From Escherichia coli (lineage in GTDB: Bacteria > Pseudomonadota > Gammaproteobacteria > Enterobacterales > Enterobacteriaceae), in the NCBI RefSeq assembly GCF_030384885.1, contig NZ_CP128613.1: a DNA stretch of 64,000 nt, one strand, 5' to 3'. Position numbers: made by a program. Below, piece by piece: positions 47,153-53,100 of the stretch. How positions within the stretch are numbered: position 1 is the first letter of the stretch; every line of letters starts with the position of its first letter.

Positions 47153-50100
47153 TAACAGCAAGGCCTTCTCCGGGAGAAGGCCTTGAACTCTGAATCGCAC
47201 TTAACCCGCAACTGCAATACGTTTCATATCCGTCATATAGCCGCGCAGTTTCTTACCTACCTGCTCAATCGCATGGCTGCGAATCGCTTCGTTCACATCA
47301 CGCAACTGCGCGTTATCTACCGCACCTTCCGGAATAGCTTTACCCAGGTCGCCCGGTTGCAGCTCTGCCATAAACGGTTTCAGCAACGGCACACAAGCGT
47401 AAGAGAACAGATAGTTACCGTACTCGGCGGTATCAGAGATAACCACGTTCATTTCGTACAGACGCTTACGGGCGATGGTATTGGCAATCAGCGGCAGTTC
47501 GTGCAGTGATTCATAGTAAGCAGACTCTTCGATGATGCCGGAATCAACCATGGTTTCGAATGCCAGCTCAACGCCCGCTTTCACCATCGCGATCATCAGT
47601 ACGCCTTTATCGAAGTACTCTTGCTCGCCGATTTTGCCTTCAAACTGCGGCGCAGTTTCGAACGCGGTTTTGCCGGTTTCTTCACGCCAGGTCAGCAGTT
47701 TCTTATCGTCGTTAGCCCAGTCCGCCATCATGCCGGAAGAGAATTCGCCAGAGATGATATCGTCCATATGTTTCTGGAACAGCGGTGCCATGATCTCTTT
47801 CAGTTGTTCAGAGAGCGCGTAAGCACGCAGTTTCGCCGGGTTAGAGAGACGGTCCATCATCAGGGTGATGCCGCCCTGCTTCAGGGCTTCGGTGATGGTT
47901 TCCCAACCGAACTGAATCAGTTTTTCTGCATATGCCGGGTCGGTGCCTTCTTCCACCAGCTTGTCGAAGCACAGCAGAGAGCCAGCCTGCAACATACCGC
48001 ACAGAATGGTTTGCTCGCCCATCAGGTCAGATTTCACTTCCGCAACAAAGGACGATTCCAGCACGCCAGCACGGTGACCACCAGTTGCTGCCGCCCATGC
48101 TTTAGCGATCGCCATGCCTTCGCCTTTCGGATCGTTTTCCGGGTGAACGGCAATCAGCGTCGGTACGCCAAACCCACGTTTGTACTCTTCACGCACTTCA
48201 GTGCCAGGGCATTTCGGCGCAACCATTACTACGGTGATGTCTTTACGGATCTGCTCGCCCACTTCGACGATGTTGAAACCATGTGAGTAACCCAGCGCCG
48301 CGCCGTCTTTCATCAGTGGCTGTACGGTGCGCACCACGTCGGAGTGCTGTTTGTCTGGCGTCAGGTTAACCACCAGATCTGCCTGCGGGATCAGCTCTTC
48401 GTAAGTACCCACTTTAAAACCGTTTTCGGTCGCTTTACGCCAGGATGCGCGCTTCTCAGCGATCGCTTCTTTACGCAGGGCATAAGAGATATCCAGACCA
48501 GAATCACGCATGTTCAGGCCCTGGTTCAGACCCTGCGCACCACAACCGACGATGACCACTTTTTTACCCTGAAGGTAGCTCGCGCCATCGGCGAATTCGT
48601 CGCGGCCCATAAAGCGACATTTGCCCAGCTGTGCCAGCTGCTGGCGCAGGTTCAGTGTATTGAAGTAGTTAGCCATGGTGATTCCTCGTGATGTTGTGCT
48701 TCTTATTGTTCGGTTCGCGTTTGCGAGATTGAATTCACTATATGACAGGAAATTTATTGCGGAAATTGATATATTCACAACGTCACATTGCAATTTTTGC
48801 AACGTCAACATTGAGGGCTGCGCCATTGGATTTACGCGATCTGAAAACCTTCCTGCATCTGGCGGAAAGCCGCCATTTTGGCCGCAGCGCGCGGGCGATG
48901 CACGTTAGTCCATCCACGCTTTCCCGACAGATTCAGCGCCTGGAAGAAGATCTCGGTCAGCAGCTGTTTGTGCGCGATAACCGTACGGTGACGCTGACCG
49001 AAGCGGGCGAAGAACTGCGCGTTTTCGCCCAGCAAACACTGTTGCAGTATCAGCAATTGCGCCACACCATCGACCAGCAAGGACCGTCGCTCTCTGGCGA
49101 ATTACATATCTTCTGCTCGGTGACCGCTGCCTACAGCCATCTGCCGCCGATTCTTGACAGATTCCGCGCGGAACACCCGTCAGTGGAGATCAAACTCACT
49201 ACCGGTGATGCGGCGGATGCGATGGAAAAAGTGGTGACGGGGGAAGCGGATCTGGCGATTGCCGGGAAGCCGGAGACGCTGCCCGGTGCAGTGGCGTTTT
49301 CGATGCTGGAGAATCTGGCAGTGGTGCTGATCGCGCCTGCCCTACCGTGCCCGGTGCGTAATCAGGTTTCGGTAGAGAAGCCGGACTGGTCTACAGTGCC
49401 GTTTATCATGGCAGATCAGGGGCCGGTGCGCCGCCGCATTGAGCTGTGGTTCCGACGCAATAAAATCAGTAACCCGATGATTTACGCCACGGTTGGCGGA
49501 CATGAAGCGATGGTTTCGATGGTGGCGCTCGGCTGCGGCGTGGCATTGTTGCCGGAAGTGGTGCTGGAAAACAGCCCGGAACCGGTGCGTAACCGCGTGA
49601 TGATTCTGGAGCGTAGCGATGAGAAAACGCCGTTTGAGCTGGGCGTTTGTGCACAAAAAAAGCGGCTGCATGAGCCGCTGATTGAGGCTTTCTGGAAGAT
49701 TTTACCGAATTACTAAGGACAATTTCATGACAACAAGAAAGTGGATATTATTATTGGTTTTAGCGGTAAGTTGCATTGCGCAAGCCAAACCGAAAGGTAT
49801 CACCGTTCAGGATGTGAAGCATCTGGCGTTGAAAGAGTGTTTAACGTCCCATTATCGTGAGCGTACGCCCGCTGATGCCTTTTCGGCTCCTGCTCATGAC
49901 GTTTCATTTCTGCTTGAAAGGTATGCTTTAGATAATGCTGGAAAGTGGAATGCTTTTCAGAAATTTGTCGCCAAAGAGACGAAGGGATTTGGCACCCTCA
50001 CCCTTGCGCTACATCCCGATAGCGCAAAGGATGCGAATAACATAATGGAGCGGTGTATGAGCTTTTATGAGTCGGAAAAGCTTGATAATTACATTCGTAA

Positions 50101-53100
50101 TAAGATTATGAAGTAAATCGTGAGAAATAAATACATGGCAAAAAATAATAATCACTTACCATCGAATATCGATAATTTCTCTATCCATAAGAAATACACC
50201 CACATATTTGACATTGCCTTTGTAAAGTTTGGTGCCAGACTGGCAGATGTACAAATGACACTATTCAAAAACACATCGCCCTCAGTTTATACACTTCAAT
50301 GTATAAGTGACGATGAATTGTTCTTTATTGATATTTACGAAGATGAGCAAGCCGTGTTAGCAGAACACCGAATTATTGATAATGAAGAAAATATTGTTTT
50401 CATCCCACATTGTTTTACAAAAATGTTAATGACTGCTTGTCAGGAAGCTAAAAAACAACCTGCTTTATACACGGAAGATATACTAATGAGCAAAAGAGTG
50501 CGTCGCCAGCGACTATCACAGACTATGCCTGCTCTGGTGAGCCTACGTGACATCCATATCGATTTTAGGACCAGTTACGGACATGGCGAAGCCTCATACG
50601 AGATCAATTTTAGTCCATACGCTATCGAAAATGGTGACTGGATGAACGCTAAAAGGTGCAGAAATTTTTCTGTTATGTTCGATGAGAATATGAATTTTAT
50701 AGAAGTTCAATGGTATAGGGATTAAAAAAACTTAAACCGAAACACGATTTGGAAACATAACAACCTCCACTTCAATTTCTGTTAAATTACTTAAATTGAT
50801 TATCAGTTTTAACTCTGAATGTTCGTTAATTGCCATCAAAATATCATTGCTAACAGAAATAAAGCTTATTGGGTTAGTCTGGGTAAAAAAGAATCCCCAG
50901 ACAAAATTATTATCAGCATCTATATATACCAACGATCCCTCGTTTCCCATCGTTCCATCACCGCCGTAGATTTTCCCGCCTTTATACTCAGTAAATGTCC
51001 AGTAGTCGACGGGAACCCAGCAATCAGAATCGTATTTTTCAATACTGGAGAAGGATGTATCACACAAAGGAGTACACCAGGCTTTCTTCTCTTTCGTGTA
51101 ATTATCGAAAGACTCCCGCCAGTTTAAAAGGGTGACAGTCCCATTCGCAAAGGTCAGGCTATCGATTCCAGGTAACTCTTTTTTCTCTTCCCAGCGTTTA
51201 AACATGACAATAAATCCTTTTATTTCATCACGTAGTATAACTCCCTAATGAAGACGTTCATTAGGGAGCCATGTGTTTAACCCGCCAAAAAGAACCTGAA
51301 CGCCGGGTTATGGGTTTCGTCGTGGCAATCGTAGCCCAGCTCATTTAGCCGGGTTTCGAAATCCGGTTCGTGGTCGCCAAGCTCGAACGCCGCCAGTACG
51401 CGCCCGTAGTCGGTACCGTGGCTGCGATAATGGAAAAGCGAAATGTTCCAGTGGGTACCTAGCGTGTTGAGGAAGCGCAGCAGCGCGCCCGGCGATTCCG
51501 GGAACTCGAAGCTGTAGAGGCGTTCCTGCAACGGATGCGATGGACGCCCACCAACCATATAGCGCACGTGTAGCTTCGCCATTTCGTCGTCGGAGAGATC
51601 AACCACGCTGTAGCCGCCATCGTTGAGCATCTGCAAAATTTCTTTACGCTCTTCGAGCCCTCGACTTAAGCGCACGCCGACAAAAATGCAGGCGTTTTTG
51701 GCATCGGCAAAGCGGTAGTTGAACTCGGTGACCGAGCGCCCGCCAAGCAGTTGGCAGAACTTCAGGAAGCTGCCCTTCTCTTCCGGGATAGTCACCGCCA
51801 GCAACGCTTCACGCTGTTCACCCAGTTCGCAGCGTTCCGAGACGTAGCGCAGGCCGTGGAAATTGACATTCGCCCCCGAAAGCACATGCGCCAGTCGTTC
51901 GCCGCGAATATTGTTCTGGGCGATGTATTTTTTCATTCCCGCCAGCGCCAGCGCGCCGGAAGGTTCCGCCACCGCGCGCACATCTTCGAATAAATCCTTC
52001 ATCGCCGCACAGATCGCATCACTATCGACGGTGATGATGTCGTCGAGATACTCCTGGCATAAACGGAATGTTTCGTCGCCAATGCGTTTTACCGCTACGC
52101 CTTCAGCAAATAGCCCCACGCGCGGCAGATCAACCGGATGACCCGCATCCAGCGCCGCTTTCAGGCAGGCGGAGTCTTCCGCTTCAACGGCAATCACTTT
52201 GATTTGCGGCATCAGTTGTTTGATCAGCACCGCCACACCCGCCGCCAGACCGCCGCCGCCGACCGGCACAAACACGCGGTCAAGATGGGCATCCTGCTGG
52301 AGCAGTTCCAGCGCCAGCGTGCCTTGCCCGGCGATCACCATCGGGTGGTCGAACGGCGGCACCCAGGTGAAGCCCTGCTGCTGTGACAGTTCGATCGCTT
52401 TCGCTTTTGCTTCGTCAAAGTTCGCGCCATGAAGCAACACTTCGCCGCCAAAGCCGCGTACCGCATCAACTTTGATATCGGCGGTGGCGGTTGGCATGAC
52501 GATCAGCGCCTTCACGCCTAACCGCGCGGAGGAAAACGCGACGCCCTGCGCGTGATTACCCGCCGAGGCAGTGATCACGCCATGCGCTTTTTGTTCTTCC
52601 GTCAGGCCCGCCATCATGGCGTATGCACCGCGCAGCTTAAAGCTGTGTACCGGCTGGCGATCTTCGCGCTTCACCAGAATCACGTTATCAAGACGCGACG
52701 AGAGCTTTTCCATTTTTTGTAGCGGCGTGACCTGCGCCGCCTCGTAAACCGGTGCACGTAGCACCGCTCTTAAATATTCGGCGCCTTCCGGAGCACCAGA
52801 CAGGGGTTGTGAGTCTGCCATCATTAACCCCCCAGTTTCGATTTATCGCGCACCGCGCCTTTGTCGGCGCTGGTTGCCAGGCTGGCGTAGGCGCGCAGGG
52901 CAAAGGAAACCTGACGTTCACGGTTTTTCGGCGTCCAGGCTTTGTCGCCACGGGCTTCCTGCGCTTCACGACGGGCCGCCAGTTCGGCATCGCTTACCTG
53001 TAACTGAATGCCACGGTTCGGTATGTCGATGGCGATCAGGTCGCCGTCTTCAATCAGGCCAATGCTGCCGCCGCTTGCCGCTTCCGGCGAGACGTGGCCG

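Follow-up and report, generated by a model that had tools for sequence, protein, structure and literature searches.

Orphan immunity genes, which are carried without their toxins, are an established kind of defence, known for instance from the acquired interbacterial defence clusters of Bacteroidales and from orphan cdiI and rhsI arrays. Here, a small AT-rich islet wedged between the genes ilvY and ilvA is described. It was found in a stretch of 64,000 nucleotides (contig NZ_CP128613.1 of assembly GCF_030384885.1, hereafter the window) from Escherichia coli strain 2013C-4282, which belongs to Escherichia cryptic clade I (PMC10100065). The islet holds three open reading frames (ORF1, ORF2 and ORF3). 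Sequence comparisons and structure models favour, with moderate confidence, its reading as an orphan islet that combines immunity genes of different kinds and has no toxin.

The described proteins closest to ORF1 are those of the Tai4/Rap family (PF16695), which confer periplasmic immunity to the Tae4 amidases of type VI secretion and include Serratia Rap1b, Rap2a and Rap2b and the Tai4 proteins of Salmonella and Enterobacter. Identity within this family is 15-35% according to the literature, and a disulfide cysteine pair is conserved (C42-C102 in Rap2a, C48-C108 in Salmonella Tai4; PMC3852654). Orphan copies of Tai4 occur in Serratia and Cronobacter, where they are thought to be protective against foreign Tae4 effectors (PMC3852654). 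For ORF3, the point of reference is the survey of Zhang et al. 2012, in which Imm-SUKH and Imm44 are listed as the immunities of Tox-ParBL1 (PMC3482391). What the present locus adds is an ilvY-anchored subfamily of Tai4-like proteins, an unnamed propeller-blade immunity family that goes with ParB-like RHS toxins, and an Escherichia-only gene, ORF2, between them.

Gene content and composition of the islet

The AT-rich segment between ilvY and ilvA occupies positions 49710-51276 (1.56 kb) of the window. Both the ORF listing and RefSeq place three intact ORFs in it, where the initial annotation of this DNA had located them. Its features, in window positions, are the following.

48826-49716, plus strand: ilvY (flank), the last two codons of which lie within the variable segment (RefSeq, junction alignment)
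49710-51276, no strand: variable low-GC islet (junction alignment, GC content, genome survey)
49715-49719, plus strand: AAGGA ribosome-binding site of ORF1, overlapping the ilvY stop codon, 7 nucleotides before the ORF1 ATG (sequence reading)
49727-50116, plus strand: ORF1, 129 amino acids, predicted secreted all-helical Tai4/Rap-like protein, putative periplasmic immunity protein (family and structure-model searches)
49727-49786, plus strand: predicted Sec signal peptide of ORF1, residues 1-20, with an A-Q-A/K-P cleavage motif (alignment, sequence)
50135-50725, plus strand: ORF2, 196 amino acids from the ATG at 50135, Escherichia-restricted orphan gene with no signal peptide
50732-51205, minus strand: ORF3, 157 amino acids, predicted cytoplasmic all-beta protein with a few propeller-like blades (homologue context, predicted model)
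51241-51268, no strand: perfect stem-loop of 12 bp, part of the islet, separating the stop of ilvA from the start of ORF3
51277-52821, minus strand: ilvA (flank; RefSeq)

The three products carry the same RefSeq label, "hypothetical protein", and none of their WP accessions is mentioned in any paper. ORF1 and ORF2 have the same orientation and are separated by 18 nucleotides. An alternative GTG start at 50120 would give ORF2 a length of 201 amino acids; RefSeq and the present analysis favour the ATG.

The GC content of positions 49717-51276 was determined as 0.387, compared with 0.574 for ilvY and 0.584 for ilvA. At third codon positions (GC3) the values were 0.36-0.45 in the islet and 0.66-0.67 in the flanks, which bears out the low GC first noticed by eye. 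The islet is the GC minimum among all 1560-bp stretches of the window, with 0.08% of such stretches equally low. Other details of the initial annotation also held, namely the ribosome-binding site placed over the ilvY stop and a hairpin about 36 nucleotides from ORF3 (35 nucleotides from hairpin to ORF3 start). The hairpin lacks a clear U-tract and probably serves ilvGMEDA either as a terminator that leaks or as a stabiliser at the 3' end.

No integrase, transposase or insertion sequence was present in the ORF list at the islet. The repeat search and the junction alignment showed neither direct nor inverted repeats bounding it, nor a target duplication, and the earlier description of flanks free of mobility genes and direct repeats thus stands. 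Rfam gave no matches on the islet segment at E<=1. No toxin gene was found within the islet in the ORF listing or in RefSeq, and no vgrG, hcp, PAAR or adaptor genes lie near it. None of the three proteins had a PADLOC match at E<=1, nor a match in PHROGs or NCBIfam.

ORF3 and its homologues beside RHS toxin domains

The genomic context of its homologues is the decisive evidence on ORF3. The protein search returned 47 homologues, and 112 loci were found among species-representative genomes, the taxa including Paenibacillus, Cohnella, Listeria, Enterococcus, Flavobacterium, Aquimarina, Capnocytophaga, Chitinophaga and Hyphomonas. Conserved motifs of the family are PLCDT, GDGxMGNEG and W-G-x-F-F-x-x-T-N-P. 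At five places, an ORF3 homologue starts 7-25 nucleotides after an RHS C-terminal variable domain, carried by an RHS protein or by an orphan fragment. These places are in Chitinophaga filiformis (two separate pairs), C. rupis, Flavobacterium sp. H122 and F. davisii. The upstream proteins are of the RHS core and YD-repeat kind, and the C-terminal domain is one conserved domain each time (53-66% identity), with the motifs S...N-R-R and D-G..R-R..A..A-G..V-P. When its profile was compared with the PDB, the top four matches were all ParB (E 0.24-0.96), and the domain fits Tox-ParBL1 as described by Zhang et al. 2012 (PMC3482391). We infer that it is a ParB-like toxin.

In Paenibacillus sp. Root52, the ORF3 homologue lies within an array of SMI1/SUKH, YezG, DUF6630 and Imm48 genes, and runs of small same-strand ORFs were seen at many other loci of the family. 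Because of the adjacency to RHS C-terminal domains and the position in an immunity array, ORF3 is read as a member of an immunity family. It is highly probable that this is an unnamed family of polymorphic-toxin immunity proteins, of which the E. coli copy is an orphan. The AlphaFold2 model of ORF3 had a mean confidence (pLDDT) of 92 and a template modelling (TM) score of 0.77 to a protein named Imm21 in the AlphaFold database. In Pfam, no match was obtained for ORF3 or any of 43 relatives, Imm21 (PF15589) included, whether single sequences or alignments were used. The ratio of nonsynonymous to synonymous substitutions (dN/dS) of ORF3 was 0.10-0.41, indicating purifying selection.

A distinct form of the family was noted in Aquimarina and relatives, where the homologues are two-domain proteins of 319-340 amino acids with an extra N-terminal domain. 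Most of them have a conserved 232-amino-acid protein upstream (14 loci, relatives included), within small same-strand gene runs.

ORF1, a candidate Tai4/Rap relative

The ORF1 family comprises 26 members, all from Enterobacteriaceae. In an alignment of 20 sequences, residues Q19, A20 and K21 around the Q-A/K-P cleavage site of the signal peptide are invariant, and export to the periplasm is predicted. ORF1 is not regarded as a lipoprotein, since the cysteine at residue 16 is not conserved. C38 and C110 are invariant in the 20 sequences; they align with the cysteines of Rap1b and correspond to the cysteine pair conserved in the Tai4/Rap family.

The best Pfam match of ORF1 was Tai4 (PF16695), covering model positions 4-90 of 92 at E 0.015, and 13 of the 20 relatives matched the same model at E<=0.1 (lowest E 6.5e-4). 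When the family profile was searched against PDB sequences, Serratia Rap1b (4ax2) ranked first over its full length (E 0.18). A comparison with Rap1b by hhalign gave a probability of 80% (E 1.4e-5) on the C-terminal cysteine motif, and the N-terminal motif K-x-x-A-L-x-x-C-L agrees with Salmonella Tai4. The AlphaFold2 model is all-helical (pLDDT 78.5). Its top three Foldseek matches in the PDB were Rap2a (3zib) and Salmonella Tai4 (4j30 and 4hff), with E 1-3 and TM 0.40-0.54. For calibration, Rap1b and Salmonella Tai4, both accepted members, were compared with each other and matched only at E 0.06. The dN/dS of ORF1 was 0.07-0.5, again indicating purifying selection. Taken together, the four independent searches make it likely that ORF1 encodes a periplasmic orphan protein of the Tai4-like kind, though a divergent one.

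ORF2, an Escherichia-only gene

ORF2 was represented by four clusters in 5.8 billion proteins, all of them from E. fergusonii or E. coli. A phmmer search against 1.84 billion representatives returned only ORF2 itself, a tblastn search against plasmids returned nothing, and a hidden Markov model of the ORF2 variants found nothing among 922 neighbour proteins of the ORF3 loci. No toxin or Tae4 family match was obtained in Pfam, NCBIfam or the PDB even at E 10, and Pfam gave no family of any kind for ORF2, as a single sequence or as an alignment. A weak PDB match to Lin0861 (3o60, E 0.18) led nowhere, that fragment having neither a Pfam or NCBIfam family nor a paper. The possibility of a Tae4-like cysteine amidase was set aside, as there was no Tae4 match and the H92-C93 pair varies (PHCF to PNPF); C101 and C175 vary between variants too. 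A 124-amino-acid Salmonella gene in the same slot was tried as a homologue and proved unrelated.

The dN/dS of ORF2 was 0.5-0.7, and the frame is open in all variants, one of which carries an in-frame insertion of six codons. ORF2 looks like a real but fast-evolving gene. Its position makes a third immunity protein the default guess.

Distribution and junction alleles in Escherichia

The window agrees at 100% identity with the chromosome of strain 2013C-4282. Its identity to K-12 is about 95.5-96% over the whole length, which fits cryptic clade I. Of 5426 complete E. coli genomes, 2 carry the islet, so that its rarity holds; the second carrier is strain 2017-02-2CC (97.8% identity). Strains RMDEC465, 2020CK-00188 and R32_14_1F have an empty site despite ilvY and ilvA flanks that are 99.0-99.3% identical, and the site is likewise empty in EC42405, a strain of clade I. 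Across broader sets of assemblies, the exact ORF1, ORF2 and ORF3 proteins were each found on about 470 contigs, always named hypothetical. In some strains, ORF3 is truncated to 111 amino acids.

The empty allele has neither a spacer nor a terminator; the stop codons of ilvY and ilvA overlap there by 4 bp as TTAA. This span is the majority form among the E. coli genomes listed. The K-12 form, in which ilvY and ilvA are convergent neighbours as stated in the initial annotation and are separated by a 52-bp REP-like spacer, is less common among them.

The islet had been taken for an exact insertion. The variable segment begins at 49710, before the ilvY stop, and changes the final two ilvY codons: the protein ends in LPNY in the islet allele and in LPNH otherwise. 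According to the junction alignment, the empty allele holds CCA in place of the islet. Its sequence (..CCGAACCA followed by TTAACCC..) is not obtainable from the filled allele by one deletion, and a simple insertion or deletion was rejected. The notion of a fresh, lineage-specific insertion was not sustained either, as ORF1 keeps its place by ilvY across five genera, E. fergusonii shares the whole module, and E. albertii has it in a rearranged form.

Synteny across genera and exchange around the ilv locus

E. fergusonii carries the same three-gene module at the same junction, and some of its strains have an extra PLD-family nuclease gene placed after ilvY. This nuclease has 332 amino acids and is DrmC/NucT-like (8448-9446 of locus L015). 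In E. albertii, the order is ilvY, a HigBA-like pair, ORF1 (79% identity), a DUF2461 remnant, two unidentified genes, ORF3 (92%) and ilvA, and a stub of the ORF2 3' end is retained beside ORF3. The HigB/HigA-like pair was located at 5078-5778 of locus L003. Salmonella has ilvY, ORF1 (65%), a 124-amino-acid gene, DUF2461 and ilvA, Phytobacter has ilvY, ORF1 (58%), DUF2461 and ilvA, and Superficieibacter has ilvY, ORF1 (60%), a 110-amino-acid gene and ORF3 (54%). The 110-124-amino-acid protein that follows ORF1 in Salmonella (6404-6778 of locus L005) and Superficieibacter (6469-6801 of locus L060) resembles EF-Tu domain 3 by eye (GYRP...G.F); it had no NCBIfam or PADLOC match and is unrelated to ORF2.

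Wherever nothing intervenes, ORF1 starts 10-12 nucleotides past the ilvY stop. This holds in five genera, E. fergusonii, Salmonella, Phytobacter and Superficieibacter being among the cases. The constant spacing marks ORF1 as a long-standing occupant of the 3' end of ilvY in Enterobacteriaceae. ORF3 accompanies it recurrently, and the slot in the middle varies. The position of ORF1 after ilvY in these genera, together with the presence of the module in E. fergusonii, indicates that the islet is old and patchily kept. Across genera, the amino-acid identity of ORF1 is 58-65%, compared with 93% for ilvY. With the PLD-family nuclease of E. fergusonii and the HigB/HigA-like pair of E. albertii, the ilvY/ilvA junction acts as a small hotspot.

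One E. fergusonii strain has an ilvY allele with 99.2% identity to that of the window, whereas ilvA does not show this, and the rep-ilv region is nearer to E. fergusonii (96.7-96.9%) than to K-12. Exchange between the two species around the ilv locus is suggested by these identities. Between the two E. coli carriers, ORF1 and ORF2 are nearly identical (synonymous divergence, dS, about 0.01), ORF3 has a dS of 0.17, and the flanks differ. Homologous recombination in the flanking core genes would yield a mosaic of this kind and would also explain the missing mobility genes. Judging from the sequences compared, this is probably how the islet moves.

Other features of the window

Three further differences from K-12 were noted in the window. 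At 8509-11342 there are two adjacent intact paralogues (502 and 442 amino acids, secreted-looking), where K-12 has a frameshifted "DKNYY family protein" remnant by cyaY, a difference of 2.5 kb. An IS3-family-like element (115-amino-acid orfA and 248-amino-acid orfB transposase) lies at 20935-22148, where the arylsulfatase gene aslA has its 3' end, and is absent from K-12 there. Between rep and ppiC, at about 46270-46720, a PemK/MazF-family toxin gene is intact here and frameshifted in K-12, with no adjacent antitoxin annotated.

Discussion

An orphan immunity cassette was one of the possibilities raised in the initial annotation, and it is now favoured for two of the three genes, ORF1 as a Tai4/Rap-like protein and ORF3 through a family found with RHS toxin C-terminal domains and in an immunity array. 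The islet could work as follows. Because its ribosome-binding site overlaps the ilvY stop, ORF1 probably shares a transcript with ilvY and is coupled to it in translation. The product would be exported via Sec as a small, helical, disulfide-stabilised protein like Tai4/Rap, and would bind and block Tae4-family peptidoglycan amidases injected by a rival's type VI secretion system (T6SS). ORF3 would be read through from ilvGMEDA past the stem-loop, or from a promoter of its own, and its product would stay in the cytoplasm, where it may bind and neutralise a ParB-like toxin domain such as those on RHS C-termini. ORF2 is possibly a third immunity protein, by association. ORF1 and ORF3 thus probably ride on the flanking ilv transcripts, and the likely benefit is protection against protein toxins of competing bacteria. 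The islet would be old in Enterobacteriaceae, lost from nearly all E. coli, and probably spread by recombination in the flanking ilv genes.

Several points weigh against this interpretation. For ORF1, each score against Tai4 (Pfam E, Foldseek E and TM alike) lies, taken singly, below the usual significance threshold, and no tae4 or other effector gene was present beside its homologues in any context examined. The missing tae4 neighbour does not exclude membership of the Tai4/Rap family, since orphan Tai4 copies are documented. For ORF3, most homologues are solitary amid housekeeping genes, a position that is reportedly frequent for orphan immunity genes. Those homologues that adjoin a toxin share only 35-38% identity with ORF3, so that specificity may differ, and no Enterobacterial toxin with a ParB-like C-terminal domain was identified. 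The case for ORF2 as an immunity gene comes solely from its location. Finally, the term orphan applies at the level of the ilvY/ilvA locus.

The islet might instead be a decaying, functionless relic of an ancestral Enterobacterial segment downstream of ilvY that is being lost, which we consider unlikely but worth weighing. It is missing from 5424 of the 5426 complete E. coli genomes, even from clade I relatives whose flanks are 99% identical, which agrees with such a loss. So do the high dN/dS of ORF2, its reduction to a 3' stub in E. albertii and the truncated ORF3 of some strains. However, the dN/dS of ORF1 and ORF3 is about 0.1-0.25, no examined variant has lost any of the three reading frames in spite of the AT-rich sequence, identical proteins turn up on hundreds of contigs, and ORF1 has been retained next to ilvY in five genera.

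A broader proposal is that the segment after ilvY is a long-lived slot for interbacterial defence, with ORF1 hard-wired to the ilvY transcript and cargo swapped at the convergent junction, and with ORF2 as either a new immunity fold or a small effector that has ORF1 as its immunity protein. In this full form the proposal is speculative and distinctly unlikely.

ORF2 adjoins ORF1 in the same orientation and is about the size of Tae4. The two genes could accordingly be an intact effector-immunity pair, in which ORF2, as a novel small toxin carried by the T6SS, would act in the periplasm and the loci with ORF1 only would be remnants after toxin loss. Other genera do keep ORF1 without ORF2, and ORF2 is truncated in E. 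albertii; such loss is the usual route to orphan immunity genes. This explanation is nevertheless improbable. ORF2 resembles no Tae4 or toxin family in the searches described above, the variability of H92-C93, Cys101 and Cys175 leaves no conserved catalytic pair evident, and its dN/dS is high for an enzyme. Moreover, secretion genes (vgrG, hcp, PAAR or adaptor) are missing nearby, and an immunity-like gene in first position would be an unusual order.

Even less probable is that ORF1 is a periplasmic housekeeping or stress protein tied to ilvY, with ORF2 and ORF3 as unrelated passengers. Its fixed distance from ilvY in five genera, never beside an effector gene, would suit such a role. Yet ORF1 has been lost from nearly all E. 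coli without replacement and evolves far faster than ilvY, and sequence and structure searches consistently rank Tai4/Rap first for it. An anti-phage defence system or toxin-antitoxin module is hardly credible: although the islet is small, rare and low in GC and shares its junction with the HigBA-like genes of E. albertii and the DrmC/NucT-like nuclease of some E. fergusonii, the defence or antitoxin-like locus first suggested gained no support, with PADLOC, PHROGs and NCBIfam all empty for the three proteins, nuclease, ATPase and DNA-binding domains absent, and export of ORF1 ill suited to a cytoplasmic role of either kind.

If the reading as an orphan islet of immunity genes is right, candidate functions are provided for two RefSeq "hypothetical" proteins that recur exactly on many contigs. 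It would also define an unnamed ORF3 immunity family together with its ParB-like RHS toxin-domain partner, a pairing that is directly testable. Toxin-less immunity genes could help to explain how cryptic clade I, an emerging pathogen lineage, withstands T6SS or RHS attack from competitors in the gut such as Salmonella or Enterobacter. The locus further illustrates an accessory islet that persists, and probably spreads, by recombination in flanking core genes. The advance is incremental, as the concept of orphan immunity is established.

Comparison with known systems

Like Tai4/Rap proteins, ORF1 is small, predicted to be exported and all-helical, and it has two conserved cysteine-bearing motifs, K-x-L-A-L-x-x-C-L and C-x-x-[FL]-[YI]-x-[SD]-x-x-L-[DN]. 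As in the case of ORF1, the cognate effectors of Rap1b and Rap2b are not encoded next to them. The cysteine spacing differs, being about 60 residues in Tai4/Rap and 72 in ORF1. Unlike Tai4/Rap, the ORF1 subfamily is tied to the ilvY 3' end and was never seen in a T6SS cluster or beside tae4.

The ORF3 family shares with RHS and polymorphic-toxin immunity proteins a small size, a predicted cytoplasmic location, a patchy distribution across phyla, and positions downstream of RHS C-terminal toxin domains and in an immunity array (PMC3482391). Its beta-propeller-like blades are a fold type that the immunity proteins of the 2012 survey reportedly lacked (PMC3482391). The Y-x-x-x-[CY]-W and W-G motifs of ORF3 recall the Y-x-x-x-C and W-x-G motifs of Imm21 (PF15589), whereas the partner toxin has an HNH fold for Imm21 and appears ParB-like for the ORF3 family.

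The islet as a whole resembles the acquired interbacterial defence clusters, which also hold immunity genes without toxins, vary between strains and are presumed to protect against the weapons of neighbours. It differs from them in being very small and free of a recombinase or integrative element, and in its place between core biosynthetic genes, on whose transcripts it is probably carried.

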